NCBI GenBank assembly: GCA_013043995.1
Contig: JABEVL010000029.1
Span: 1 to 29,913, forward strand
DNA: 29,913 bases
Direction of reading: 5' to 3'
DNA from: Spirochaetales bacterium
GTDB lineage: Bacteria; Spirochaetota; Spirochaetia; JABEVK01
Under the pieces are notes generated by a model that ran no database searches, had not been told where the DNA came from, and saw nothing but the letters and a program-made list of their open reading frames with translations. The translations under genes and the position numbers were made by a program. Shown here piece after piece: positions 7,090 to 21,977 of the stretch (positions within the stretch are counted from its first letter, which is position 1; each line of letters begins with the position of its first letter).

Positions 7090-7560
7090 ATGCCGAGAAA
7101 AAGCTATGACGCAAACCGTCCTCTCTCTCCGGACCCCTTGCATAACTCCATTGTCGTGGCGAAATTTGTCCGCCGCATGATGCAGCACGGCCAGCTGATG
7201 ACCTCTCAAAAGATCCTTGAGGGTGCTTTTGGGATTCTGAAAGAAAAATCAGGCCGTGAACCTTTGGAAGTTTTTCTGAAGGCTCTTGATAACGTCAAGC
7301 CTGTTGTTGAGGTTAAGTCCCGCCGAGTTGGTGGGTCAACCTACCAAGTGCCTGTTGAAATTCGAGACTCTCGCCGCGAAGCCCTTTCGCACCGCTGGAT
7401 CATTCTTGCGAGCAGAGGACGGAGTGGAAAGTCGATGGCAGAGAAACTGGCTGCCGAGCTTTTTGATGCTTTTAATAACACAGGGACAGCCTTTAAGAAA
7501 AAAGAGGATACTCATCGCATGGCTGAGGCCAATAAAGCCTTCAGTCATTACAAGTGGTAG
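7090..7560 (+). CDS. rpsG: 30S ribosomal protein S7
   Basis: PDP..NS, VEVKSRRVGGSTYQVP, KKKEDTHRMAEANKAFSHY; follows rpsL. Confidence 0.98.
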   Translation: MPRKSYDANRPLSPDPLHNSIVVAKFVRRMMQHGQLMTSQKILEGAFGILKEKSGREPLEVFLKALDNVKPVVEVKSRRVGGSTYQVPVEIRDSRREALSHRWIILASRGRSGKSMAEKLAAELFDAFNNTGTAFKKKEDTHRMAEANKAFSHYKW

Positions 7561-7577
7561 ATTCTCTGATTTGATAG

Positions 7578-7606
7578 TTGACAGAAGTTTTGCAATCTGT
7601 TAGCTT
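7578..7606 (+). promoter_or_regulatory. sigma70 promoter upstream of the tuf leader
   Basis: Perfect TTGACA (7578-7583), 17 bp spacer, extended -10 TGtTAGCTT (7598-7606). Confidence 0.75.
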
Positions 7607-7612
7607 GTCCAA

Positions 7613-7931
7613 GAGTTTTTGACCCTTCGGGGCAAGTGCTAAAATAGGCTTAAGCCTCCTTTGGCACCTCTGCCGGAAGGTAGCGTTCTTTGGTGGTGTT
7701 TGAAAGAAAAGGCAAACTGCTGATTTTGTCAGTAAGTGCGTTTCTTGGATAAACCCAAGTCATTTTGACTGTTGTACTTACGACCGTCCGATGTCTAACC
7801 TCTTTGCGCACCTCTGGCAGAAAACGATAAAGATCATTTAAGATCTTTGCACCATTTTTTAATTAGAATGGTTTAAGTTTGAAACCTAATAGGTTGCTGT
7901 ACTTATTGAAAAATAAGCCAAGGAGGAAGGG
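7613..7931 (+). ncRNA. Candidate structured cis-regulatory 5' leader of the tuf-S10 operon (family unassigned)
   Basis: About ten short hairpins including cUUCGg, GGAA and GAAA tetraloops, plus a 10-bp long-range anti-SD/SD pairing (7655-7665 with 7917-7926). No ORF with an SD. No match by eye to RNA families I know. Confidence 0.5.
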
Positions 7932-9119
7932 ATGGCTAAGGAAAACTTCGTTCGTTCGAAGCCCCATATCAACGTTGGAACTATTGGTCACGTCGACCAT
8001 GGTAAAACGACCTTAACTGCTGCACTCACGTCTTACTGTGCTAAGAAGCATGGTGGAAAAGAAATGAAATACGAGGATATCGATAACGCTCCTGAAGAAA
8101 AAGAGCGCGGTATCACGATTAATACGCGGCACGTTGAGTACGAATCTAATGCTCGTCACTACGCCCACGTCGACTGTCCCGGACACGCTGACTATGTTAA
8201 AAACATGATCACGGGTGCTGCACAGATGGATGGTGCTATTCTTTTGGTTGCGGCCGACTCGGGTCCGGAGCCGCAAACGCGCGAACATATTCTTTTGGCT
8301 AAACAGGTCGGGGTTCCTAATATGGTCGTCTTCATGAACAAGATGGACCTTGCTGACCCTGAATTGGTTGAACTTGTTGAAATGGAAGTTCGAGATCTTT
8401 TGACTCTTTACGGGTTTAATGGTGAAAAAACTCCTTTTATCAAAGGTTCGGCTTTCAAGGCCATGTCTAATCCCAACGATCCTGAGGCGACAAAGTGTCT
8501 TGATGAGCTCCTTGAAACCATGGATAAGTACTTTATCATTCCTGAACGTCCTCTGGATAAACCTTTCCTGATGCCGATTGAAGACGTTTTTTCGATTTCT
8601 GGTCGCGGTACCGTTGTTACGGGCCGTGTCGAACAGGGTAAGGTTAAAATTGGTGATACTTGTGAAATTGTTGGAATTAAACCGACTCTTTCAACGGTTA
8701 TTACTGGCGTTGAAATGTTCAATAAAAATCTGGATGCGGGTCAGGCTGGCGATAATATCGGTGCTTTGTTGCGCGGTATTGAAAAGAACCAGGTGGAACG
8801 TGGTCAGGTTTTGGCAGCTCCTAAGTCTATTACGCCTCACACGAAATTTAAAGCGACAATTTACTGCTTGAGCAAGGAAGAGGGTGGCCGTCATAATCCG
8901 TTCTTCACTGGCTATCGCCCCCAGTTCTACTTCCGAACGACGGACGTAACGGGTTCGGTAACCCTTCCTGCTGATAAGCAAATGGTTATGCCTGGCGATA
9001 ACACGGAACTAACTGTCGAATTGATCCATCCTATTGCTATGGATAAAGGACTTCGCTTTGCCATCCGTGAAGGTGGACGCACTGTTGCTTCCGGCCAAGT
9101 TATTGAAGTTATTCAGTAA
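7932..9119 (+). CDS. tuf: Elongation factor Tu
   Basis: [22 protein letters not shown]. The [10 protein letters not shown] and [12 protein letters not shown] segments resemble Borrelia-type EF-Tu. Strong SD AAGGAGG. Confidence 0.99.
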
Positions 9120-9131
9120 AAGAATGAGTAA

Positions 9132-9165
9132 AAGTTCCGTTCTTAGGAGCGGAACTTCTTTTTTT
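9132..9165 (+). terminator. Intrinsic terminator between tuf and rpsJ
   Basis: 11-bp stem AAGTTCCGTTC/GAGCGGAACTT, loop TTAG, followed by C and T7. Confidence 0.8.
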
Positions 9166-9176
9166 GGGAGATAGGG

Positions 9177-9485
9177 ATGGCAAGTGACAGAATTCGTGTA
9201 AGATTGCGCGGTTTCGATGTAGAGTTGGTTGATCAGAGTGCGAAAGCAATCGTGCAGACCGTAAACAAAGCGGGAACAAAGGTGGCAGGCCCTATTCCGC
9301 TTCCTACGAAGATCAATAAGTTTACTGTTTTGCGATCTCCTCACGTCAATAAAAAGTCTCGGGAACAATTTGAAATGCGAACGCACAAGCGTTTGATTGA
9401 TATTCTCGAGCCCACCCCCGCAGTTATGGAAGCTTTAATGAAATTAGAGCTCCCGGCTGGTGTCGATGTGGATATTAAGCAGTAA
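9177..9485 (+). CDS. rpsJ: 30S ribosomal protein S10 (NusE)
   Basis: [41 protein letters not shown]. Confidence 0.99.
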
Positions 9486-9500
9486 TACTGAGGTTAGAAA

Positions 9501-10121
9501 ATGATCGGAGTTATCGGAAGAAAGATTGGGATGACTCAGGTTTTCGATGAAAGTGGAAAACTCACACCTGTCACCGTGATTAAAGTAGAACCGAATGTTG
9601 TTTTAGCTCAGCGTGAGATGGAAAAACATGGTTATAAGGCCTTGGTTGTTGGGACTACTCCTGCAAAAGAAAAGGCTTTAACAAAACCTGAACTAGGTCA
9701 ATTTGTCGAAGGTGTCGCTCCTCAACGTTTAGTTTTGGAGTTTCGTAACTTTGAAAAAGATTGCAAGGTTGGTGAAAGTTTTGGCCTTGAGCTTTTCGAA
9801 AATACTGGTTTTGTTGATGTGAGCGGTGTCTCGAAAGGAAAGGGTTTCCAAGGCGTTATGCGCCGCTACAACTTTAAGGGCGGTGAAGAGACTCATGGCT
9901 CTAAGTTTCACCGTGAGCCTGGATCGACGGGTCAGTCGACGACACCTCGTAAAACCTTTAAGGGTGTCAAGTTGCCCGGTCATATGGGCCGTGAAAAGGT
10001 TACGATTCTGAATCTTCGCATCGTTAAGGTTGATCAAGAAAATCAAGTTGTTCTGGTGAAGGGAGCTATTCCTGGAGCTAGAAATAGTTATGTTATTGTT
10101 CGTCATGCGGTAAAGAGGTAA
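9501..10121 (+). CDS. rplC: 50S ribosomal protein L3
   Basis: GRKIGMTQVF, SKGKGFQGVMRR, HREPGSTG, GHMG. Confidence 0.99.
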   Translation: MIGVIGRKIGMTQVFDESGKLTPVTVIKVEPNVVLAQREMEKHGYKALVVGTTPAKEKALTKPELGQFVEGVAPQRLVLEFRNFEKDCKVGESFGLELFENTGFVDVSGVSKGKGFQGVMRRYNFKGGEETHGSKFHREPGSTGQSTTPRKTFKGVKLPGHMGREKVTILNLRIVKVDQENQVVLVKGAIPGARNSYVIVRHAVKR

Positions 10122-10126
10122 GGGAT

Positions 10127-10768
10127 ATGGAAAAGAAAGTCTATTCCGTTCAAGGAAAAGAGATTAAAACCATAACTCTTTCAGATGAGGTGTTTGCCCG
10201 AGAGATCAGTGAAGGTTCAATCTATAACGCGATCAAGAATGAGCTTGCTAATCTCAGGGTTGGTACTGCAGATACGAAAACAAGAGCCGATGTCCACGGC
10301 GCTCACCAAAAACTTTGGAAACAAAAAGGCACTGGGCGTGCTCGTATGGGAACAAAGCAGTCCCCTGTTTGGGTAGGCGGTGGTGTGGTTTTTGGTCCTC
10401 ATCCGAGAGACTATAGTTATGCTATGCCTCGCAAGGTCAAGCAGTTGGCTATGAAATCGATTCTGAGTTTAAAGGCAGCCACTGACGGGTTTAAACTCGT
10501 GGAGAATTTTACAGTCCCAACGGGAAAAACGGCTGACCTTGTAAAGATTCTTAAGAATTTAGTAGCACTCAAAGAAAAGACTGTCATTATCCTGAAAGAT
10601 GATGATGAGTTTTTCAAACGGGCTGCGAGAAATCTTCCCTGGTTAAGTTTCCTTACTTTTAATCGACTTCGTGCTCACGATCTTTTTTACACCAAGAATC
10701 TTCTTGTTATGGAGTCAGCGGCAGTGAATCTTTCGGGGTTTTATTCCTCTGAAAAGAGTGAGGTTTGA
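10127..10768 (+). CDS. rplD: 50S ribosomal protein L4
   Basis: GTADTKTR, KQKGTGRAR, GGGVVFGPHPR; position in the S10 cluster. Confidence 0.98.
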   Translation: MEKKVYSVQGKEIKTITLSDEVFAREISEGSIYNAIKNELANLRVGTADTKTRADVHGAHQKLWKQKGTGRARMGTKQSPVWVGGGVVFGPHPRDYSYAMPRKVKQLAMKSILSLKAATDGFKLVENFTVPTGKTADLVKILKNLVALKEKTVIILKDDDEFFKRAARNLPWLSFLTFNRLRAHDLFYTKNLLVMESAAVNLSGFYSSEKSEV

Positions 10769-10770
10769 AG

Positions 10771-11076
10771 ATGGAAAACTTAGCTGTAATTATAAAGCCG
10801 CTTTTGACTGAAAAGTCGAATCTTTTGCGAGAAGGAAAGTCCAAGAAGTATGCTTTCCGTGTCGATGCAAGAGCGAATAAATTTCAGATCCGACAAGCTG
10901 TTGAAGCCCTGTTTAACGTAAAGACAACGAACTGTCACATCATTAATGTGATCGGCAAAAAGAAGAGTTTGGGGATGCGTGGTGGTCGCCGAACTCCTGG
11001 CACGACTTCGGCCTGGAAAAAAGCTTACGTTACTTTGGTCGCTGATCAGAAGATTGAAAAGTTTGAAGGCGTTTAA
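10771..11076 (+). CDS. rplW: 50S ribosomal protein L23
   Basis: IIKPLLTEKS, ANKFQIRQAVE, WKKAYVTL. ATG 10771 chosen (SD GAGGT at 10760-10764). Confidence 0.97.
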   Translation: MENLAVIIKPLLTEKSNLLREGKSKKYAFRVDARANKFQIRQAVEALFNVKTTNCHIINVIGKKKSLGMRGGRRTPGTTSAWKKAYVTLVADQKIEKFEGV

Positions 11077-11090
11077 CGGAGTAATATAAG

Positions 11091-11912
11091 ATGGCGATAA
11101 AAACTTTTAATCCAGTAACAAAAAGTCTTCGTGGTACTGCCCTCCTGCGTTACGATGACATAACTCGTTCGACCCCCGAAAAGTCTTTGACTACAGGTAA
11201 AATGGAGAAGGCTGGCCGTTCTAACGGTCGCATCAGTGTTCGCAGAAAGGGTGGTGGGCATAAAAAACTTCTGCGCTTGGTCGATTTTCACCGCGAAAAA
11301 TTTGGCGTGCCTGCCGTTGTTAAAGAAATCGAGTACGATCCCAATCGTTCTTCACACTTGGCCCTTTTGTCCTACAAGGATGGGGTTAAACGCTATATTC
11401 TGGCTCCGCGGGGCGTTAAAGTGGGTGATGCTTTGATGAGTGGACCACAGGCGCCCATTCGTGATGGCAATGCGCTTCCTTTGGAAAATATTCCTGTGGG
11501 AAGAAATATTCACGGCATTGAGTTGCAGTTGGGTAAAGGCGCTCAGTTGGCACGTTCTGCGGGTACATCGGCTCAACTGGCTGGTTTTGACGGTGATTAC
11601 GCGATAGTTAAACTTCCTTCCGGTGAAATGCGAATGGTCTTTAAAAAATGTATTGCGACCATTGGCGAAGTCGGAAATGAAGATCATATGAACGTCAAGA
11701 TTGGCAAAGCAGGGCGTAACCGTTGGCTGGGAAAACGTCCGTCCGTCCGTGGTGTGGCTATGAACCCTGTTGATCACCCCCTGGGCGGTGGACAGGGCAA
11801 GACCTCGGGTGGTCGTCATCCTGTAACCCCTTGGGGACAGCCAACAAGAGGTTATAAAACCCGTCAAAAGAACAAGTCTTCCGATCGCTTTATTATTAAG
11901 CGACGGAAGTAG
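11091..11912 (+). CDS. rplB: 50S ribosomal protein L2
   Basis: [35 protein letters not shown]. Confidence 0.99.
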
Positions 11913-11921
11913 GAGTGAATC

Positions 11922-12203
11922 GTGTCTCGATCTGTTAAGAAAGGTCCGTACATTGCGAAGCATCTCTACAAAAAAATTGTTGAGATGGGAAAGGATAACG
12001 ATCGAAAGATGGTTAAAACCTATTCTCGTACCTCCACTGTTATTCCTGAAATGGTGGGTTTCACAATTTCTGTCTACAATGGAAAAACTTGGATTCCTGT
12101 TTACATTACTGAGGATTTGGTTGGTCATAAATTAGGAGAATTTTCTCCTACTCGGACCTACCGTGGTCATGCGGGCTCCGATAAAAAGGCAGGGAAAAAA
12201 TAA
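11922..12203 (+). CDS. rpsS: 30S ribosomal protein S19
   Basis: [26 protein letters not shown]; GTG start. Confidence 0.99.
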
Positions 12204-12559
12204 TGGAGACAAATAAAGGCTTTTCGGCCTTTGCGCGTGGGCTTCCCATGTCGGCAAAGAAAGTCCGCCCGCTGGCTGACCATTTGCGGCGAAAGAAAGT
12301 TTCTGATGTCTTGGCCTTGCTTGAAGTTATGCCGCATAAAGGTGCTTACTTTTTAAAGAAAGTGATTCAGTCAGCTGCTTCAAACGCTGTTTATCAAAAT
12401 AAGCAACTTGATGAGGATCAGCTCGTTGTTTCTCGTCTGATGATCGACGAAGGTCAAAGCTCGACTAAGGTTTGGCCCCGTGCCCGTGGTCGAGCAGACC
12501 GTTTGAAAAAACGCACCTGCCACATAACTGTTGAAGTCGAAGAAAAAGGAGCGAAGTAA
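12203..12559 (+). CDS. rplV: 50S ribosomal protein L22
   Basis: SAKKVR, SAASNA, PRARGRA, KRTCHITV; position in the cluster. Confidence 0.96.
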   Translation: METNKGFSAFARGLPMSAKKVRPLADHLRRKKVSDVLALLEVMPHKGAYFLKKVIQSAASNAVYQNKQLDEDQLVVSRLMIDEGQSSTKVWPRARGRADRLKKRTCHITVEVEEKGAK

Positions 12560-12562
12560 TCC

Positions 12563-13261
12563 ATGGGCCAGAAAGTTCATCCATACGGTTTACGGCTCGG
12601 TATCAATAAAACTTGGAAATCCCGTTGGTTTGTTGATCCCCGGGACTACGCCAAGACGCTTCATGAAGATCTTAAATTGCGAAAGGCAATTATGGATTTG
12701 CCCGAAACCAAGGGTGCCGATATTTCGGATCTTGAAATTGTTCGCCAGCCTCAAAGAATTACGGTTGTTATTAATACAGCTCGTCCTGGTGTGATCATCG
12801 GTTCTAAGGGTGCCAACATTGAAAAGATTGGAGAAAGCCTTCAAAAGCTTGTGGATAAGAAAGTTTCCATAAAAATTAAGGAAATTAAGAAGCCAGAAGG
12901 TGACGCTCAGATTGTGGCCTTGAATGTCGCGCGTCAACTTAAAAATCGTGGCTCATTTCGAAAGGCTTTAAAACAGGCGATCACGAATTGTATGAAGACC
13001 GGTGCGCAAGGTATTAAGATCATGATTTCAGGTCGCTTGGGTGGTGCCGAGATGGCTCGTACCATGCAACTGAAAGAAGGTCGCGTTCCTTTGCAAACAT
13101 TAAGGGCCAACCTGGATTATGGTTTTGCGGAAGCATTTACGACTTATGGTGCTATTGGTGTCAAAGTTTGGGTTTTTAACGGTGATATTTACGAAAAAAA
13201 CTCAAAAGAAGACGCTGGTGTTTTGGTTAAGAAAAGTCTCGATAAGAAGGATGGGAACTAA
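12563..13261 (+). CDS. rpsC: 30S ribosomal protein S3
   Basis: [15 protein letters not shown] domain [27 protein letters not shown]. Confidence 0.99.
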
Positions 13262-13263
13262 TC

Positions 13264-13686
13264 GTGTTAGCACCTAAGCGCATGAAGTTCAGGAAGAAAC
13301 AACGCGGACATTTTCGTGGCGTAGCAACGACTTGTAATACTCTGGCTTTTGGCGAATTCGCGCTTGCAGCTGTTGAAACTCTTTGGATCACAAACCGTCA
13401 GATAGAAGCTGCGCGTGTTGCCATGACTCGTCACATTAAACGCGGTGGTAAGGTTTGGATCAGAATTTTCCCTGATATGCCTTATACGAAGAAACCTGCT
13501 GAAACTCGTATGGGTAAGGGAAAGGGAAATGTGGAAGGTTGGGTTGCTTTAGTTAAACCTGGCACGGTTATTTTTGAAATGGCTGGTGTTTCGCAAGAAT
13601 TAGCCACTGAAGCCATGGCCTTGGCGAGTGCTAAGCTTCCGATTAATACAAAGTTTATTCAAAGACGGGAGTTGGGTGGATCATGA
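13264..13686 (+). CDS. rplP: 50S ribosomal protein L16
   Basis: [26 protein letters not shown]; GTG start. Confidence 0.99.
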
Positions 13687-13883
13687 AAGACCGTTTCAAA
13701 GAAATCTCCAGGGCAGAAGCCCTGGCTAAGGTTGCCGAACTTAAAAAGGAATACCTTGATTTTCGTTTTCAAATGGTTTTGGGCCATGTTGAAAATCCAC
13801 TTCACAAACGGACATTGCGTCGTCAGATCTCTCGTTTGAACACGATTGTTTCTGAGTTTGATCGGGGAGTAAGGAAGGCTTAA
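13683..13883 (+). CDS. rpmC: 50S ribosomal protein L29
   Basis: ELKKE..DFRFQ...G.VENP...RRQISRLNT; position in the cluster. Confidence 0.95.
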
Positions 13884-13884
13884 C

Positions 13885-14145
13885 ATGACAGACGTAAAGA
13901 TCATTAAGAAGATTTTTCAAGGTAAAGTCGTTAGTGACAAGATGGAAAAGACGATCACGGTTCTTGTAGAACGTCGAACTCTGCATCCTATTTATCAAAA
14001 ATATGTTACGCAGAGCAAAAAGTTTAAAGCTCACGATGAAACCAATGATGCGAAGGTTGGTGATATTGTTCGGATCATCGAATGTCGCCCGATCAGTAAA
14101 GACAAAACCTGGAATCTTCTTGAGATTGTCGAGCGGGCAAGGTAA
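13885..14145 (+). CDS. rpsQ: 30S ribosomal protein S17
   Basis: [34 protein letters not shown]. Confidence 0.99.
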
Positions 14146-14156
14146 AGGGGTAGGTT

Positions 14157-14525
14157 ATGGTTCAGCAAGAAACCTTTTTGAATGTTGCTGATAATACCGG
14201 CGCAAAGCTGGTGCAGTGCATTCGTGTGTTGGGTGGTACAAGTCGTAAGTATGCCAGTGTTGGTGACCTGATTATTGTTGCTGTTAAAGAGTCGATTCCT
14301 ACGGCAATGGTTAAGAAGGGTGACGTTCAGACAGCTGTTGTCGTTCGTGTGCACAAGGAGTATAGGCGTCCTGACGGAACATATATCCGTTTTGATGACA
14401 ACGCTTGTGTGATTATTGATGAGGCTTATAATCCCAAAGGTAAAAGAATATTTGGGCCTGTAGCACGTGAACTTCGTGATAAAGATTTTATGAAGATCAT
14501 TTCCCTGGCTCCGGAAGTAGTGTGA
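14157..14525 (+). CDS. rplN: 50S ribosomal protein L14
   Basis: [33 protein letters not shown]. Confidence 0.99.
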
Positions 14526-14533
14526 GGTTTGAG

Positions 14534-14842
14534 ATGAAGACCAAACTGAAGAAAAATGACCTTGTTAAGATTCTTACGGGAAAAGACAAGGGGAAGACCG
14601 GTCATATCATTGAGATCGATCCTGTCAAGGAACGTGTCCTTGTTGAAGGCTGCAATATGAAGAAAAAAACCATGAAGCCGCGCAGTCAGCAAGACAAAGG
14701 TGGCATCATGGAAATTGAGGGATCTTTGCACCTCTCGAACGTCATGGCGGTCACAAAAAACGGTAAACCTTCTCGCCTGGGTTTTAGATTTGAAGAGGGC
14801 AAAAAAATTAGGTTTGCTAAATCAACTGGGGAGGCTCTTTGA
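14534..14842 (+). CDS. rplX: 50S ribosomal protein L24
   Basis: KOW motif [25 protein letters not shown] 14534 chosen (SD GAGG). Confidence 0.97.
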
Positions 14843-15411
14843 TGGCTGAAAAGAAAGCCTCGACAACTTATCATCCTCGCCTCAAGGTGATCTATAAAGA
14901 TAAGGTTGCCAAGGAATTGATGGAAGAATTTCAATATTCATCGGTTATGCAGGTGCCTAAGATTGAAAAGGTTGTTGTAAGTGTTGGCATGGGGGAAGCT
15001 CTTAATAACAAGAAGCTTTTGGATGCCACAGTGAAGGAACTTGGTCAGATTACGGGTCAAAAAGCTGTAAAAACCAAAGCAAGAAAATCTGTCGCAAACT
15101 TTAAAGTGCGCGAAGGCCAAGAAATTGGCGCGATGGTGACTTTGCGCGGTGATACGATGTACGAATTTCTTGACCGATTGTTGAGCGTTGCTCTTCCTCG
15201 CGTTAAAGATTTTCGTGGCGTCAATGCAAATGCGTTTGACGGTCATGGCAATTATTCTTTGGGGATAACTGAGCAGATCATTTTCCCTGAGATTGATTAT
15301 GATAAAATTGAGAAAGTGAGCGGGTTAAACGTAGCTATCGTTACGTCGGCTCCCACGGATCAAGAAGCTAGAAGCCTTTTGAAAAGGCTTGGCATGCCCT
15401 TTAAGAGGTAA
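14842..15411 (+). CDS. rplE: 50S ribosomal protein L5
   Basis: [35 protein letters not shown]; TGATG overlap with rplX. Confidence 0.99.
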
Positions 15412-15414
15412 TTT

Positions 15415-15600
15415 ATGGCTAAAAAATCTCTGATTATCAAAAGCCAAAAAAAGCAGAAGTACTCTACTCGACAGTACAATCGCTGTCTGGTTTGTGGTCG
15501 TCCGCGTGGTTATATCAGTAAGTTTCAATTGTGCCGCTTGTGTTTCCGGAAGTATGCCAGTGAAGGCCTTCTCCCCGGCGTAACCAAGTCGAGCTGGTAG
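15415..15600 (+). CDS. rpsN: 30S ribosomal protein S14, zinc-binding (type Z, C+) form
   Basis: 61 aa, RCLVCGRPR and CRLCFR, ends GVTKSSW. Confidence 0.98.
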
Positions 15601-15615
15601 TGGAGGAAGAAAGAA

Positions 15616-16014
15616 GTGTCTGTTTCCGATCCAATTGCTGACATGCTGACGAAAATCCGAAACGCCAGCGAAGCCAAGTTCGAAAAAGTTGACATCGCAA
15701 CCTCAAAGCTAAAACTCGAAGTTGTGAAGATTCTTAAGAATGAAGGCTATATAAAAAACTTTAAGAAAGTTGTCCAAGACGGTCAAAATGCCTTGAGGAT
15801 TTTCTTAAAGTACGATGATAAGAATTCTGGAGTTATCCATGGTCTCCGGTCGTATTCTACACCGGGACGTCGGGTTTATTCAGGGTATAAAGAAATGCCT
15901 CGCGTTTTGAATGGTTATGGAACTCTGATTGTTTCAACATCTCAAGGCGTAACAACAGGTCGAAAAGCTGCTGAAAAGAAAGTCGGCGGCGAGTTGATCT
16001 GTACGGTTTGGTGA
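15616..16014 (+). CDS. rpsH: 30S ribosomal protein S8
   Basis: [33 protein letters not shown]; GTG start. Confidence 0.99.
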
Positions 16015-16030
16015 GTTAAGGAGATCTGGA

Positions 16031-16573
16031 ATGTCTCGTATAGGCAATATGTCCATAGAAGTGCCTAAGGGCGCTAAGGTCAGTTTTTCAGGTGATCTTT
16101 TTACTGTCGAAGGACCGAAAGGAAAACTGACTCAGAGCTATGATCCTTGTATTAGTTTTACCCAAGAGGGCTCCTTGATTCGAGTTGTTCGTTCGAGCGA
16201 GGAAAAATCTGTTAAAGCTAAGCACGGGCTTTACCGCAATCTTTTGAATAATATGCTGATCGGTGTCGTTCAGGGTTTTTCTCGAGTTTTGGTAATCAAT
16301 GGTGTCGGGTACCGGGGAGAAGTCAAAGGAAACATTTTGACTCTGAACTTGGGCTACTCGAATCAAATTGAGTACATGATCCCTAAAGGTGTTCAAATCG
16401 CTGTTGAAAACAATACAAAGATTTCAATAGCTGGAATTAGCAAAGAACAAGTGGGTCAGGTTGCCAGTGAGATTCGTAGTCTGCGAGCTCCTGAACCTTA
16501 CAAAGGGAAGGGAATTCGCTACGAAGACGAGACGATTCGGCGCAAGGTCGGAAAGTCAGGCGTTAAGAAATAA
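16031..16573 (+). CDS. rplF: 50S ribosomal protein L6
   Basis: MSRIG, GPKGKL, GVGYR, PEPYKGKGIRY. Confidence 0.99.
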   Translation: MSRIGNMSIEVPKGAKVSFSGDLFTVEGPKGKLTQSYDPCISFTQEGSLIRVVRSSEEKSVKAKHGLYRNLLNNMLIGVVQGFSRVLVINGVGYRGEVKGNILTLNLGYSNQIEYMIPKGVQIAVENNTKISIAGISKEQVGQVASEIRSLRAPEPYKGKGIRYEDETIRRKVGKSGVKK

Positions 16574-16585
16574 CGGGAGTTGGGC

Positions 16586-16945
16586 ATGAAGAAACTGATT
16601 GCAAAAGCAAAACGCAGACAACGAAGGAAGCTTCGTATTCGAGAGATTGTGCGCGGAACTTCTTCTCGTCCGCGGTTGAGTGTTTTTCGATCCAATCTCC
16701 ATTTTTATTGTCAGGCAATTGACGATCTGAGCGGTACAACTTTAGTTGCTGTGTCTGACCTTGAAAAGGATCTCCAGGCTAAAACCATGAATTCTGAGAC
16801 TGTCAAGAAACTGGGTCAGACCTTGGGAAAGCGGCTTAAAGAGAAAAAGATCGAGACTGTTGTTTTTGACCGTGGTGGTTTTCAGTATCACGGTGTCATT
16901 AAGAATTTTGCCGATGCAATTCGCGAATCGGGCATCAAGTTCTAA
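16586..16945 (+). CDS. rplR: 50S ribosomal protein L18
   Basis: RPRLSVFRSN, VFDRGGFQYHG, ADAIRESG. ATG 16586 chosen (SD GGAG). Confidence 0.98.
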   Translation: MKKLIAKAKRRQRRKLRIREIVRGTSSRPRLSVFRSNLHFYCQAIDDLSGTTLVAVSDLEKDLQAKTMNSETVKKLGQTLGKRLKEKKIETVVFDRGGFQYHGVIKNFADAIRESGIKF

Positions 16946-16954
16946 GGGGTAAGT

Positions 16955-17452
16955 ATGGATCAGGCTAGAGATAATAAAGAGTACGTTGAAAAACTGATCC
17001 GGCTGAACCGGGTTGCTAAAGTCGTGAAAGGCGGACGGCGATTTTCTTTTTCAGCCATGGTCGTAGTTGGGGACCGTAACGGAAACGTTGGTTATGGCTT
17101 TGGTAAAGCTAATGACGTTTCTGAAGCTATCCGCAAAAGCGTAGAGAAGGCAAAACGAAATATGATGAATGTTCCTGTTAAGAATGGAACTTTGCCACAT
17201 GAGTTGAATACGACCTATAAAAGTTCACACGTGCTTTTAAAACCGGCAGCGCCCGGTACGGGTATTATTGCGGGCGGCCATGTCCGAGCAGTTATGGAAG
17301 CTGTGGGTGTGAAAGATGTCCTGAGCAAGTCGATCGGCTCTGGTAATTCTGTCAATGTCGTCAAAACAGTTTTTAAAGGTTTTGTAGAAATGATCGACGC
17401 CAAAAAAATGTCTTTAGGACGTGGTAAAGCGTTGAAGGAACTGTGGGGTTAG
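16955..17452 (+). CDS. rpsE: 30S ribosomal protein S5
   Basis: [26 protein letters not shown]. Confidence 0.99.
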
Positions 17453-17455
17453 GCG

Positions 17456-17641
17456 ATGGCAAAAAAAATTCGCGTCAAGCTCGTACGGAGCACGATTGGT
17501 AAGAATCCGAATCAAGTTGCTACTGTTAAAGCTCTTGGTTTGCGAAAAATAGGTTCAGAAGTGGAGTTTGAGGTCAACGCTTCCCTTTTGGGCATGGTTG
17601 AGACCGTGGCACACCTGGTGGTGTGGGAGGATGTTAAATAA
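17456..17641 (+). CDS. rpmD: 50S ribosomal protein L30
   Basis: KLVRSTIG, ALGLRKI, GMVETVAHLV. Confidence 0.97.
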   Translation: MAKKIRVKLVRSTIGKNPNQVATVKALGLRKIGSEVEFEVNASLLGMVETVAHLVVWEDVK

Positions 17642-18102
17642 TGGAAAATCCGTATATTCTCAGAGCTCCCATCGGTGCAAACACGAAGAAAACGATTATT
17701 GGACGCGGTCGATCTAGCGGGACGGGTGGAACTTCTGGTCGAGGAAATAAAGGACAAAAATCTCGTTCTGGCGGGGGTGTTCGACTTGGCTTTGAAGGTG
17801 GTCAGACTCCCTTGTTTAGGCGTTTGCCTTCCCGGGGTTTTTCAAATGCCGTTTTTACGGTCAGATATTCTGTAGTTAACCTTTCTCTTCTCGAGCAAGC
17901 TTATGAAAATGGCGATACCGTCAATTTTGAGTCTCTTGTGGCTAAAGGCTTGATTAAGCGAAGCGAGACCCTTGTTAAGGTTCTCGGAAAAGGTACCTTG
18001 ACCAAGAAACTTACTGTCTCTGTCGACAAGCTTTCTGAAAGCGCTAAATCCGCGATCGAGAAAGCCGGTGGAAAGGTTGTTTCTGTGGTCGAAAATTCTT
18101 AG
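17641..18102 (+). CDS. rplO: 50S ribosomal protein L15
   Basis: GRG.SSG.GGTSGRGNKGQKSRSG, GFEGGQTPL.RRLP.RGF. Confidence 0.99.
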   Translation: MENPYILRAPIGANTKKTIIGRGRSSGTGGTSGRGNKGQKSRSGGGVRLGFEGGQTPLFRRLPSRGFSNAVFTVRYSVVNLSLLEQAYENGDTVNFESLVAKGLIKRSETLVKVLGKGTLTKKLTVSVDKLSESAKSAIEKAGGKVVSVVENS

Positions 18103-18114
18103 TGGGATCATAGA

Positions 18115-19437
18115 ATGGCTGGAACCGCGCTTGTCGACATTTTTCGCATCAAGGATCTTCGGGACAGAATTTTTTTCACCATCGGTGTGCTTCTAGTTTT
18201 TCGTCTGGGAGCTGTTTTGCCGATTCCTGGAATTAATGTCACTGCTCTAAAGACTTTTTTCTCTCATCAGCAGTCTAATGGAAGTTCCCTGACAGATTAT
18301 TTTAACTTCTTTTCAGGTGGAGCTTTCGACCATTTTTCTTTGTTCATGTTAGGCATTATGCCCTACATTTCAATGTCGATCATTATGCAATTGATCGTGG
18401 TTGTTTTTCCTCGAATGAAGAAAATTCAGGAAGAAGACGGTGGACGAAAAAAGATCCAACGATGGACGCGCATTGGAACTGTCGGAGTTTGTCTGATTCA
18501 GTCCTACGCTGTGACTTCTTACGCAAAAAGTATACCTGATGCTGTTTCAATTTCCCACTGGGCTTTTGTGTTAATAGCGATGCTGACAGTGACGACGGGA
18601 ACCTTATTCCTCATGTGGATGGGCGAACAAATCAATCAACGCGGAATTGGTAACGGTATTTCTTTGTTGATTTTTACGGGTATCGTAGCTCGAATCCCTG
18701 ATGCAGTTTATCAGTTGTTTCAAGCCATTCAACGTGGTGATCTTAACCCCGTCTTTGTTATTCTTGTCTTTCTGTTGTTTGTTGTCGTTATTGCCTTGGT
18801 TATATTCGAGCAGCAAGGGATGCGAAAAATCCCAGTCCACTACGCCAAGCGTGTTGTTGGAAAAAAATTATTTGGGGCGCAGAACACCTATATTCCTTTT
18901 AAACTTAACCCTTCTGGCGTTATTCCCATCATCTTTGCGAGTTCTTTCTTGATGTTTCCGCTCCAGATTGCAGGAAATTTGGGTGGCTCAGTACCTTGGT
19001 TGGCTGCGGTGGCCGAGTTTCTTCGTCCCCACGATTGGCCATATTTGGCTATTTACACCTTATTGATTATTTTCTTTGCTTATTTCTACACACAGGTTAC
19101 CTTGAACCCCGTTGAAATTTCTAAACAAATTCGTGAAAACGGTGGCTCGATCCCCGGTATTCGTTCTGAAAAAATGGAAGAGCATTTGACAAGAATCTTG
19201 AATAGGATTATCCTTCCGGGGTCCTTGTTCTTGGCTCTTATCGCGGTCATTCCTCAATTGATTGTGATGTGGATACCCGGTTTCCCTCAGGCGCTTGCCT
19301 ACATTATGGGCGGTACTTCTCTCCTGATTTTGGTTGGTGTTGACCTGGATACGATGAACCAAATTGAAGGACATCTGAGAATGCATCACCATGAAGGGTT
19401 TGCTAAGAAAGGCAAAATCCGGTCCAGGAATTTATAG
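18115..19437 (+). CDS. secY: Preprotein translocase subunit SecY
   Basis: LGIMPYIS, GIGNGISLLI, KLNPSGVIPIIFA, GGTSLLILVGV; about ten hydrophobic segments. Confidence 0.99.
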   Translation: MAGTALVDIFRIKDLRDRIFFTIGVLLVFRLGAVLPIPGINVTALKTFFSHQQSNGSSLTDYFNFFSGGAFDHFSLFMLGIMPYISMSIIMQLIVVVFPRMKKIQEEDGGRKKIQRWTRIGTVGVCLIQSYAVTSYAKSIPDAVSISHWAFVLIAMLTVTTGTLFLMWMGEQINQRGIGNGISLLIFTGIVARIPDAVYQLFQAIQRGDLNPVFVILVFLLFVVVIALVIFEQQGMRKIPVHYAKRVVGKKLFGAQNTYIPFKLNPSGVIPIIFASSFLMFPLQIAGNLGGSVPWLAAVAEFLRPHDWPYLAIYTLLIIFFAYFYTQVTLNPVEISKQIRENGGSIPGIRSEKMEEHLTRILNRIILPGSLFLALIAVIPQLIVMWIPGFPQALAYIMGGTSLLILVGVDLDTMNQIEGHLRMHHHEGFAKKGKIRSRNL

Positions 19438-19449
19438 GAGATTTGCTGA

Positions 19450-19563
19450 ATGAAAGTTAGAGTCAGCGTTAAACCAATTTGTGATCAGTGCAAAGTCATT
19501 CGCAGACATGGTGTTTTACGAATTATTTGTACTAACCCCAAGCATAAACAAAGACAGCGATAA
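19450..19563 (+). CDS. rpmJ: 50S ribosomal protein L36 (zinc-binding form; too short for the ORF track)
   Basis: Manual translation: [37 protein letters not shown] (37 aa); SD AGGAG upstream. Confidence 0.98.
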
Positions 19564-19574
19564 GGAAAATATTT

Positions 19575-19940
19575 ATGGCCAGAATTGCGGGTATTGATCT
19601 TCCCAACAAACATATTGACATTGCTTTGACCTACATTTATGGGATAGGAAGAGCTTCTGCTACGAAGATTTGTCAAAAAACGAAAATTGATCCTGACAAG
19701 AAGACAAATGATCTCAATCAGGATGAAGTCAATGAGCTGAGGAAAATTATTGAGAATGACTTTGTTGTGGAAGGGCGCTTGCGTTCCGAAGTTTCTCTTA
19801 ATATTAAAAGATTGATGGATATTGGTTGCTATCGGGGATTAAGGCACCGGCGGGGTTTGCCGGTCAGAGGTCAACGGACAAAGACCAATGCCCGTACGCG
19901 TAAAGGTAAGCGGAAGACAGTTGCGAACAAGAAGAAGTAA
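19575..19940 (+). CDS. rpsM: 30S ribosomal protein S13
   Basis: [42 protein letters not shown]. Confidence 0.99.
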
Positions 19941-19954
19941 GCGGGGGCATAATT

Positions 19955-20335
19955 TTGGCTAAGGTTAAGAAGAAGAAAGAAAAAAAGATTGTTTTTGAAG
20001 GGAATGTTTTTATACAGGCTACATTCAATAACACTATTGTGACTGTTACTGATATGCGCGGTAATGCTCTTTCATGGGCATCAGCTGGCGGATTGGGTTT
20101 TCGTGGTGCTAAGAAGTCTACCCCTTTTGCAGCCCAAACAACTGCTGAAAATGCGGTAAATAAGGCAAAAGAGTACGGACTTCGTGAATTGCACGTTTAT
20201 GTTAAGGGACCTGGTGTTGGGCGAGAATCTGCTATTCGTTCGATGGGCGCTCTTGGCTTCCGTGTGAAGAGCATTCACGATGTTACTCCTATTCCGCACA
20301 ATGGTTGCCGTCCTCGTAAAAGTCGGCGTGTCTGA
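19955..20335 (+). CDS. rpsK: 30S ribosomal protein S11
   Basis: [35 protein letters not shown]; TTG start. Confidence 0.99.
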
Positions 20336-20365
20336 TTTAGTTCAGTTCAAACCGACTCAGGGAGT

Positions 20366-20393
20366 GACCGGTCTTAGGATCGGTCCTTTTATT
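20366..20393 (+). terminator. Weak terminator-like hairpin between rpsK and rpoA
   Basis: Stem GACCGGTC/GATCGGTC, loop TTAG, followed by CTTTTATT. Confidence 0.5.
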
Positions 20394-20418
20394 GTTCCGA
20401 GGATATTAAGGAGTTGAA

Positions 20419-21471
20419 ATGGCGAGAAAAAATCTTTTAAAGGGCTTTAAACGACCGAAAGGCCTGCATTTCGAACAGAGTGATCTGAGTCCGAATTATG
20501 GCAAATTTATCGCTTACCCTTTTGAACGCGGATTCGGGCATACGATCGGCAACACCCTGCGGCGTGTTCTTCTCTCCTCGATTCAGGGTTATGCGGTTTC
20601 GGGTATTCGTATCACGAGCTTTAATGAAGCTGGAACTCCCCATCTTCTCTCGAGTGAGTTTGAGCCTATTCCCGAAGTTGTTGAGGATACTGCGGTTATT
20701 TTGGCAAACCTCAAGAGTTTGCAGCTGAAGGTTCCTGGCGACCTGGATTCAGTGACGATTCTTGTTGAAGCCAAGGGAAAAGACAAATCGAGCATCACTG
20801 GCGCTGACCTGTGCGTGTCCGGAGTTGAGGTCATGAATCCAGATTTGCACATTGCAACCCTTTCTGGCAAAGCCAACCTAGAGCTTGAAATTCAGATAGA
20901 CCTCGGGCGCGGTTACGTTCCTGCAGAAGTCCATGAGAAAAGCGTGGAAGTTCAAAACACGATTGCTGTGGATTCAATTTTCTCGCCGATCAAAAAAGTC
21001 AAATACGCCGTTGAAGACACTCGTGTTGGACAACGCGCTGACTTTGATAAGCTTATCCTTGAGATCTGGACCGATGGGACGATTTCTCCCGAAAATGCCT
21101 TAGCTGAAGCTGCTAAGATTTCCAAAGATCATTTCAGCATTTTTATAAACTTTAATGAAGATGATATCTCAGGGGACGCTGAAATCACTGAGGATGAGGT
21201 AGCTGTTAAGGCCTTGTTGAACACTCCTGTCGAGGATCTTGAGTTGTCCGTTCGTTCGAGCAACTGCTTGAAAAACGCTAACATCAAAACAATTGGCGAA
21301 CTGATCCATAAGTCTGAGGACGACATTGCCAAAACTCGTAACTTTGGTAAAAAGAGTCTTGAAGAAATCAAACTCAAGCTAAAAGAAAGAAACCTTTCTT
21401 TTGGTATGAATGACACCAGTCAAATTATCCAGGCGATGAAACTCGCCCAGCAGAACAAGGAAGCTGTATGA
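20419..21471 (+). CDS. rpoA: RNA polymerase alpha subunit
   Basis: [48 protein letters not shown] and [11 protein letters not shown]. Confidence 0.99.
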
Positions 21472-21977
21472 ACAACAAGACAGGTTTCAACCGACTTAAT
21501 CGTCGGGCTGGACAACGACGAGCGTTACTGAAAAACATGGTAACCTCTTTATTCCAGTACGAAAGAATTACTACGACTAAGGCCAAGGCTTTGGAGGTTC
21601 GCCGTTTTGCAGAAAAAATGGTAACCCGTGCCAAGGTGGACTCGGTTCACAACCGAAGGGAAGTTTCCAAAACTATTACAAATGAGACGGTTCTTAGAAA
21701 ACTTTTTACAGTTCTCGGGCCGCGTTTCCAATCTCGAATGGGCGGCTACACACGGATTTTGAAAATTGGGCAGCGTTATGGTGATGCGGCTGAAATGGTT
21801 CTTTTAGAGTTTGTCGAACGTTCGGGACAAACCGCTGCTCCTGAGGCTCCGACCACCAGCAACAAAAAGTCCAGCTCGGAAGAGACGAAGAAAGCTTCCT
21901 CAGCTGAGGCCGCTCAGAGCTCCAAGCCCAAAAAAGCAACTAAAGCTAAAGAAAAAGTTCCAGCTGAGACAAAGTAA
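21468..21977 (+). CDS. rplQ: 50S ribosomal protein L17 with low-complexity C-terminal extension
   Basis: [36 protein letters not shown]; Ser/Lys/Ala/Glu-rich tail. Confidence 0.98.

Follow-up and report, generated by a model that had tools for sequence, protein, structure and literature searches.

The spacer of 371 nucleotides (nt) between rpsG and tuf in the window analysed here (contig JABEVL010000029.1 of assembly GCA_013043995.1, 29,913 nt in its full length) carries a conserved, promoter-driven and highly structured leader, and the question which this locus raises is what a leader ahead of tuf and the S10 genes might sense. The source is an uncultured Spirochaetales bacterium from mine drainage, and the sequencing runs holding the window sequence were mine-drainage DNA metagenomes only. 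Positions 7578-7931 are best explained as a promoter followed by the ~320-nt 5′ leader of one long unit, tuf-S10-spc-alpha (7932 to ~21977), and the leader is probably an undescribed feedback sensor for the spirochaete ribosomal-protein (r-protein) gene cluster. From sequence comparison, we put at about 60% the probability that it is an autoregulatory leader which senses ribosomal protein S8 through a hairpin mimicking helix 21 of 16S rRNA.

A leader hairpin and helix 21 of 16S rRNA

Twenty distinct leaders from the window's family were compared. A DNA search of relatives identified conserved islands in 8 of 11 same-family genomes, further copies were obtained from one metagenome scan and one scan of the GTDB representative genomes, and the tuf upstream regions of the remaining genera were included. 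The relatives returned by pattern search were Spirochaetales metagenome-assembled genomes (MAGs), and homologous leaders were present in all 20 family sequences.

Of the modules in the leader, the hairpin at 7704-7746 has the widest conservation. The two strands of an asymmetric internal loop in this hairpin (Table 1) read CAAACUG and UAAGUG, as against GAAACUG and (U/C)AAGUC in helix 21 of spirochaete 16S rRNA. Compared with the form GAAACUG / UAAGUC, 11 of 13 positions were identical, and the remaining two amount to one flipped base pair. The primary S8 site is described as having seven conserved loop nucleotides, with the triples (G597-C643).N641 and A595.(A596-U644) and an invariant A642 (PMC4176348), and all seven of these were found in the leader (A595, A596-U644, G597-C643, U598-A640, N641, A642). 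The pair G597-C643 is represented by G7736-C7717, with A7715 at position 641, and is C-G in 20/20 family leaders; position 641 is A in spirochaete 16S rRNA also. The bulged A642 corresponds to A7716, which was invariant in a 20-sequence alignment made without the motif descriptor. A7734 and A7735-U7718 supply the sequence for the A595.(A596-U644) triple or an isosteric equivalent; the pair 644-596 is U-A in 14 and C-G in 6 family leaders (U-A in 14 and C-G in 31 class-wide), and a G-C variant of this triple's pair has been reported in Thermus (PMC4176348). U598-A640 is represented by the invariant U7737-A7714, and the odd-numbered asymmetric loop is flanked by covarying regular helices, in which the pair 638-600, for example, is U-A in 12 family leaders, C-G in 6, G-C in 1 and U-G in 1. 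The core pairs were invariant in 20/20 sequences, and the observed covariation was reached by 0 of 500 shuffles.

Helix 21 was read from Spirochaetia 16S sequences, among them that of a same-family MAG, represented by its most spirochaete-like contig. When this genome and nine relatives from its family were searched for 16S sequences, the only rRNA came from small contigs belonging to a single MAG (G008). Its contigs C97, C171 and C138 (loci L067, L068 and L069) hold three different 16S fragments. An E. coli-type boxA (GCUCUUUAACAA) accompanies one of them and a 5S-like sequence precedes one, which suggests that the bin is contaminated; only the most spirochaete-like fragment was used.

Distribution of the S8-like site and alternative functions

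A tuf-anchored survey of 52 further Spirochaetia genomes, on top of the 20 family leaders, located an S8-like site 95-346 nt upstream of tuf in 28 of the 52, which gives an overall figure of 48 of 72 Spirochaetia leaders in 17 families. The rpsG-tuf spacers (8.7 kb) gave 25 descriptor matches where 2.0 were expected (Poisson P ~4e-19, a figure inflated by relatedness), and the flanking sequence (185.5 kb, both strands) gave 43. Stem pairs lying outside the descriptor were paired in 39-45 of 46 distinct sequences, with four to six pair types each, compared to 4-35 of 46 when the partners were slid by one or two columns as a control. The S8-like site goes with tuf and not with rpsG: in genome G044, where tuf is 1.4 Mb from rpsG, the site is still 227 nt upstream of tuf, and five rpsG genes with no downstream tuf were followed by a plain terminator and no S8-like site.

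Several observations weigh against S8 sensing or against its proposed boxA partner. The pair 599-639 is G599-C639 in 20/20 leaders, the reverse of its orientation in rRNA and in the E. coli operator, and no co-variation of leader with rRNA was detected at 598-640 in G044. The 72 leaders include 24 without the site. Taken by itself the motif is common: this 1.9-Mb genome gave 676 matches to a loose descriptor and 44 to a stricter one, which the window's own site fails through a G.G mismatch at 637-601, and it is on conservation, not on a single sequence, that the case rests. A distance of 192 nt to the tuf start makes E. coli-style direct competition with the ribosome impossible. In at least one other family, f6, a good promoter (TTGACA-17-TACAAT) is located downstream of the S8-like site, and the arrangement, perhaps also the mechanism, therefore differs among families. 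A terminator scan 3′ of the S8-like site gave no convincing terminator in the window's family and clear ones in a few others (f38, f36), and a general attenuator model was rejected on that ground. Finally, the boxA-like block which accompanies the site in the window's family occurs in about 5 families only, with a match of just 7-9 nt.

A covariance model combining boxA and the S8 hairpin (R1) was also run on 151 class genomes; it recovered only genera g1 and g2 and missed its own g3 training members, its pre-filters being too strict, and its result has no bearing on absence.

Two further layouts were noted among the surveyed loci. In f6 (L115 from G016 and L131 from G078), the S8-like hairpin comes immediately after the rpsG stop codon, with a U-rich tail (containing GGUUCUUUG in G016) and the strong promoter 3′ of it, in that order; the site may serve there as all or part of the rpsL-rpsG terminator. 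In f38 (L103 and L109) and in L118 (G046), a clear intrinsic terminator stands 6-45 nt 3′ of the hairpin (for example CAAGCUUGGGC-GGAA-GCCCAAGCUU followed by U5), a layout which resembles an attenuator and was not seen in the window's family.

The boxA-like block is situated ~20 nt upstream of the S8-mimic core in the window's family, and the odds that it is a site for NusB/S10 are roughly even, judged from the following comparisons. G-Y-UCUUU was invariant in 20/20 leaders (GUUCUUU 7685-7691 here) with variable flanks, no conserved pairing partner was found for it in the 20 leaders, and in the consensus fold it is mostly unpaired, with its first two nt within helix P3. The rRNA operons of this genome and its genus were not assembled, and the comparison with rRNA leaders therefore uses relatives: an identical GUUCUUUGG begins both rRNA leaders of G016, right after the promoter, the boxA of the same-family 16S contig (GUUCUUUGAAAG) is close to the leader block, and other spirochaete rRNA leaders carry GUUCAUUGAAAA-type variants. 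The boxA consensus GYTCTTTAANA is gamma-proteobacterial and may differ in other groups (PMC5725501); positions 1-7 of the block match it, and in place of its AANA 3′ half the window has GGUG and the relatives UGGU or AGAG. The heptamer was found 10 times in rpsG-tuf spacers compared to 2.5 expected, and its extended form 8 times compared to 0.47 expected, with 6 of the carrier loci coming from one family. In families f2, f6 and f35, similar blocks were located on the 3′ side of the S8 site.

It is unlikely, in our estimate, that this block is the main business of the leader, and no other rival fared better. Under such an explanation NusB/S10 on GUUCUUUGG would shield from Rho a transcript that is long, untranslated and highly expressed, and would either take RNA polymerase past the tuf-rpsJ terminator or serve S10 autoregulation, while the likeness to the S8 site would be coincidental or the hairpin would be bound by something else. 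The invariance of the heptamer, its identity with the spirochaete rRNA-leader boxA and its enrichment in spacers all agree with this, and there is a precedent in boxA elements before rpsJ-containing operons and in NusE autoregulation (PMC5725501); so does the conserved terminator directly before rpsJ, which leaves no promoter space. What it leaves unexplained is an invariant internal loop matching helix 21 nucleotide for nucleotide, and it has to contend with a block of much narrower distribution than the S8-like hairpin (17 families) and with the deviation from the gamma-proteobacterial consensus at positions 8-11.

It is very unlikely that the leader is a structured but non-regulatory one, with stabilising 5′ hairpins or processing sites, or that an independent small RNA precedes tuf. 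The invariant single-stranded and internal-loop nucleotides, kept across genera and families, exceed what stability needs, and a terminator for a separate small RNA is absent; this has to be set against a stable UUCG hairpin close to the predicted 5′ end (~10 nt), as is typical of stabilisers, a leader-tuf junction with no terminator and the lack of a demonstrable output mechanism.

Still less probable is an operator for another protein encoded nearby (S7 of rpsG, L4, S4 or EF-Tu). The site is directly 3′ of rpsG in most genomes, and in E. coli the neighbouring str and S10 operons are under the control of S7 and L4 (PMC10931766), but where rpsG and tuf are apart it stays with tuf, and its conserved nucleotides are those of the helix 21 S8 site, with no recognisable S7 or L4 site (23S rRNA, unassembled in these genomes, was outside the comparison).

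Fold of the leader and possible outputs

The leader (7613-7945) had a minimum free energy (MFE) of -108.7 kcal/mol, with z = -4.95 against dinucleotide shuffles, and 0 of 100 shuffles were as good. The first-pass annotation, made from the sequence alone, had recognised no known family in it, and the Rfam search bears this out: Rfam 15 gave no match over the whole window at gathering score and, in 7450-8050, only noise at E<=10, and no match was found in 16 related loci spread over the class. Three other candidates were rejected, namely RAGATH-33 (15.8 bits at the leader against a threshold of 120), a tRNA or tmRNA remnant (no tRNA or tmRNA being present) and a small minus-strand open reading frame at 7650-7811, which was ruled out by the RNA-helix-like pattern of conservation.

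Table 1. Features of the tuf leader and of the transcription unit which it heads (MFE, minimum free energy fold; SD, Shine-Dalgarno sequence)
Feature	Coordinates	Strand	Details	Basis
Sigma-70 promoter, extended -10	7578-7606	+	TTGACA 7578-7583; 17-nt spacer with TG 7598-7599; TAGCTT 7601-7606	
P1 hairpin	7623-7633	+	CCC-UUCG-GGG; alternative is long-range pairing over SD	
P2 variable hairpin	7636-7667	+	GUGCUAAA..UUUGGCAC, nested AGGC-UUAA-GCCU; contains 7655-7665	
Invariant ACCUCU and P3 5′ strand	7666-7686	+	ACCUCU 7666-7671; P3 5′ strand 7669-7686	Alignment, MFE
boxA-like element	7685-7693	+	GUUCUUUGG; candidate NusB/S10 (NusE) site	Conservation, rRNA-leader identity
S8-site mimic hairpin	7704-7746	+	Lower stem 7704-7709/7741-7746; core 7712-7739	
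S8 mimic, 639-side strand			C7713=639, A7714=640, A7715=641, A7716=642, C7717=643, U7718=644, G7719=645	
S8 mimic, 594-side strand			U7733=594, A7734=595, A7735=596, G7736=597, U7737=598, G7738=599	
S8 mimic, upper stem			UGCUGA(U)/(G)UCAGUA, UUUU loop	
P3 3′ strand	7806-7821	+	GCGCACCUCUGGCAGA, then conserved AAAAC	MFE, alignment
3′ hairpins	7828-7916	+	7828-7849; 7851-7872; 7883-7895 (AACCU-AAU-AGGUU); 7902-7916 (CUUAU..AUAAG, GNRA-type loop)	MFE
SD region and tuf start	7917-7934	+	GCC-AAGGAGGA; ATG 7932-7934; GCCAAGGAGGA invariant in family	
Intrinsic-terminator-like hairpin, tuf-rpsJ spacer	9132-9166	+	11 bp, U7 tract	Terminator scan
rpsH (S8, proposed ligand)	15616-16014	+	Same co-directional cluster	Gene map

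The 20 leaders share a plan, which from the 5′ end consists of at least one 5′ hairpin, the invariant ACCUCU (kept in 19/20), a small hairpin, the invariant G-Y-UCUUU, a variable insert, a hairpin framed by CA(A/U)AC(U/C)(G/A) and (U/C)A(A/G)GUG, more hairpins, GCCAAGGAGGA and the ATG. The full architecture of ~300 nt is common to genera g1 and g2 (14 sequences), and the other genera have the listed modules only. Covariation was observed in the closing pairs of P2, in the S8 stem and in the hairpin before AACC.

Of the hairpins listed in the first-pass annotation, six were recovered in the MFE fold (7646-7649/7654-7657, 7718-7724/7728-7734, 7771-7775/7780-7784, 7828-7835/7842-7849, 7851-7858/7865-7872 and 7883-7887/7891-7895), those at 7670-7683 and 7744-7759 appeared as local alternatives only, and the one at 7902-7917 was present in the alignment consensus and absent from the MFE fold. 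The local hairpin at 7670-7683 (CUGCC-GGAA-GGUAG) overlaps the 5′ strand of P3 and holds a boxB-like position; it was picked up by the terminator scan. Among the 3′ hairpins, the first (7828-7849) is an insertion private to this genome, the one before AACC covaries, AACC/GGUU is invariant, and the last varies in its loop and closing pair.

The closing pairs of P2 covary (GC/CG/AU and AU/GU/CG/UG), and its interior is wholly different between species. P3 (7669-7686 with 7806-7821) has 16 bp in the MFE fold, and both the boxA block and the S8 hairpin lie inside it; the helix was kept in 14 sequences with changes that are one-sided and pairing-compatible only, and its 3′ strand, which reads GCUCUUCCGGUGGA in relatives, carries substitutions in this genome that preserve the pairs (UG to UA and GU to GC), a pattern that hints at a real helix.

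The tuf SD had been proposed to be occluded, and it is indeed predicted to be paired in this genome, a single-stranded SD being forced at a cost of ~5 kcal/mol. The predicted partner is P1: CCUUC 7624-7628 and GGC 7631-7633 pair with GGAGG 7922-7926 and GCC 7917-7919, which closes the leader, and the MFE fold and both alignment consensus folds pick this long-range pairing over the local P1 hairpin, which can be forced for only 1.8 kcal/mol. Both strands are invariant in the 14 g1 and g2 sequences and the 5′ element is absent from the family's other genera (half), for which reasons the pairing is beyond covariation testing. Predicted SD partners vary by species (the 5′ CCUUC, a CCUCC at ~position 220, or local U-rich runs), and the invariant ACCUCU would be a third possible anti-SD, so far as folding predictions go; SD occlusion is plausible on these models.

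The switch originally proposed, in which CCUCCUUUGGC (7655-7665) as anti-SD pairs with GCCAAGGAGG (7917-7926) and closes the leader over the tuf SD, in competition with local hairpins and under the control of an unspecified ligand (EF-Tu, L4, S10 or a nucleotide), is scarcely credible: the complementarity is real here (a duplex of -16.5 kcal/mol, in a fold 1.8 kcal/mol above the MFE, as the check on alternative folds indicated), but conservation, which had been named beforehand as the point on which the helix could be refuted, is lacking, the segment being inside the variable P2 with a shorter and unrelated GUGCAGAUUUUCUGCAC at its position in the closest relatives and an equivalent duplex that reaches only -3.8 to -13 kcal/mol among the 19 other leaders; a ligand pocket was not found, nor was a riboswitch match in Rfam. 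Those guesses at a ligand missed S8, the best-supported candidate, and may be partly right as regards S10, by way of the boxA-like NusB/S10 site.

Feedback by r-proteins through rRNA mimicry is a classical scheme. Under S8 sensing, S8 in excess of free 16S rRNA would bind the mimic in the leader, and bound S8 would lower expression of the unit encoding rpsH. As to the output in this family, given S8 binding, we tentatively prefer a closed leader with SD occlusion and polarity, at less than even odds: S8 would stabilise the closed central domain (P3 and the S8 hairpin), the closed domain would favour pairing of the tuf SD with a pyrimidine-rich segment (7624-7628, 7666-7671 or ~7799-7802), and transcripts left untranslated would then be ended by Rho or at the tuf-rpsJ terminator.

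A possible but less favoured output, again given S8 binding, is that S8 disturbs a boxA-nucleated antitermination complex on which passage of the tuf-rpsJ terminator depends. A full two-input control, in which a boxA-nucleated Nus complex (with S10) reads through that terminator and S8 on the adjacent mimic blocks or dismantles the complex, appears quite unlikely. If it were true, excess S8 would shut off the S10-spc-alpha block and leave EF-Tu synthesis untouched, and this would be a case of r-protein-controlled processive antitermination with one sensor replacing the L4, S8 and S4 circuits of E. coli.

Genomic setting and comparison with known systems

The genes of the window are ordered rpoB′, rpoC, rpsL, rpsG (7090-7560), the spacer, and tuf (7932-9119), followed after a further 57 nt by an unbroken run from rpsJ to rplQ (9177-21977), in which gaps are of <=16 nt throughout with the exception of that between rpsK and rpoA (83 nt). 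The strong promoter reported in the first-pass annotation (TTGACA-17-TG-N-TAGCTT) was confirmed on reading the sequence, and the architecture TTGACA-N17-(TG-N)-TANNNT was kept in 20/20 family leaders; a simple consensus scan had missed it because the -10 element is TAGCTT. Its position would place the transcription start at ~7612-7614.

The U7 tract of the terminator-like hairpin in the tuf-rpsJ spacer runs into the rpsJ SD, and a GC-rich hairpin with a U tract entering the rpsJ SD was present in nearly all of 32 Spirochaetia loci examined. This leaves no space for a promoter of the S10 operon, and expression of S10-spc-alpha may therefore depend on read-through. rpsH is 7.9 kb downstream of the leader in the same gap-free cluster, and the S8 translation of the window keeps, as VSTSQG, the S-T-S motif which is a conserved RNA contact of S8 (PMC4176348).

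In E. coli, the S8-interacting RNA of the spc operon is at the rplE start (Cerretti 1988 and Merianos 2004, summarised in PMC3616713 and PMC4176348), which reads GCGAAACUGCAUGA...UCAUGCAAGUCC in NC_000913.3. Both there and in the proposed leader site a helix 21 mimic in the mRNA belongs to a unit containing rpsH, the 643-side strand is 5′ and the 597-side strand 3′, and the hairpin closes beyond 646/593; the cores are nearly identical (GAAACUG / CAAGUC in E. coli, CAAACUG / UAAGUG here). The E. coli operator, internal to its operon, overlaps the start codon of rplE and acts by directly blocking initiation, whereas the leader site is in the 5′ untranslated region, 192 nt ahead of tuf and 7.1 kb ahead of rplE (start ~14839), has the 599-639 pair flipped, and, being within a multi-helix leader of ~320 nt, must act at a distance. 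The E. coli-type operator is confined to Gammaproteobacteria (PMC3616713), and neither a descriptor match nor an E. coli-type site was found at or near the rplX-rplE junction of this genome. By analogy, the leader element would work like the E. coli S8 operator, and it is not a member of that homologous family.

The boxA-like block resembles the non-rRNA boxA targets (suhB and rpsJ-containing operons; Baniulyte et al. 2017, PMC5725501) in having a GYUCUUU core in the promoter-proximal 5′ leader of an rpsJ operon. It differs from them in that its 3′ half is GG(N)G and not AANA, in being accompanied by an r-protein mimic and in that its binding is a prediction; being >230 nt from the start codon, it is unable to occlude the ribosome as in suhB.

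No description of an S8 site upstream of tuf, or of any spirochaete S8 operator, was found in the literature, and a 2024 review describes spc regulation in other species as unknown and phylogenetic studies as not advanced (PMC10931766), so that control of the spc and S10 operons outside Gammaproteobacteria is an acknowledged gap. If S8 sensing is correct, a whole bacterial class, including complete cultured-type assemblies, heads its fused tuf-S10-spc-alpha unit with an S8 mimic, one and the same mode of protein-RNA recognition serves again in a different location and has to act at a distance, and one sensor could serve about 30 genes. The hairpin of 40 nt would then offer a simple testable system and a candidate new Rfam family, and its boxA-like partner would tie r-protein feedback to Nus-factor control.

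The S10 operon of E. coli has a leader subject to L4-mediated attenuation and translational control. The tuf leader is like it in being long, structured, placed before the S10 block and, as proposed here, responsive to a product of the operon. The two differ in that there is no homology of sequence or structure, no Rfam match and no internal attenuator terminator in the tuf leader, in that the candidate protein is S8 and not L4, and in that tuf intervenes between leader and rpsJ.

Some minor features of these loci were also recorded. No fusA separates rpsG from tuf in this window or in its family, and in G044 (L137), the genome with a distant tuf, an EF-G-like gene is found 327 nt 3′ of rpsG. 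S4 (rpsD) is the regulator gene of the E. coli alpha operon; in the window rpsK is followed directly by rpoA (gap at 20336-20418) with no rpsD in between, and that regulator gene is therefore not in this cluster. The boxA-like block GUUCUUUGG and GUUUCUUGG (7740-7748, just 3′ of the S8 hairpin) are near-duplicates, both of which can pair with AAAGAA 7704-7709, and a similar three-way competition was noted in L030, L031 and L066 and not in the other g1 or g2 leaders. When the tuf-rpsJ spacers were compared (L029-L033 and L088-L114; 9120-9176 in the window), the terminator tail of L029 was found to read GGCGUUCUUUGGAG, which is boxA-like. In L006 (G010), an extra ~450 nt with GAAGCGAAG-type repeats and a masked run of N is located between rpsG and the tuf promoter.

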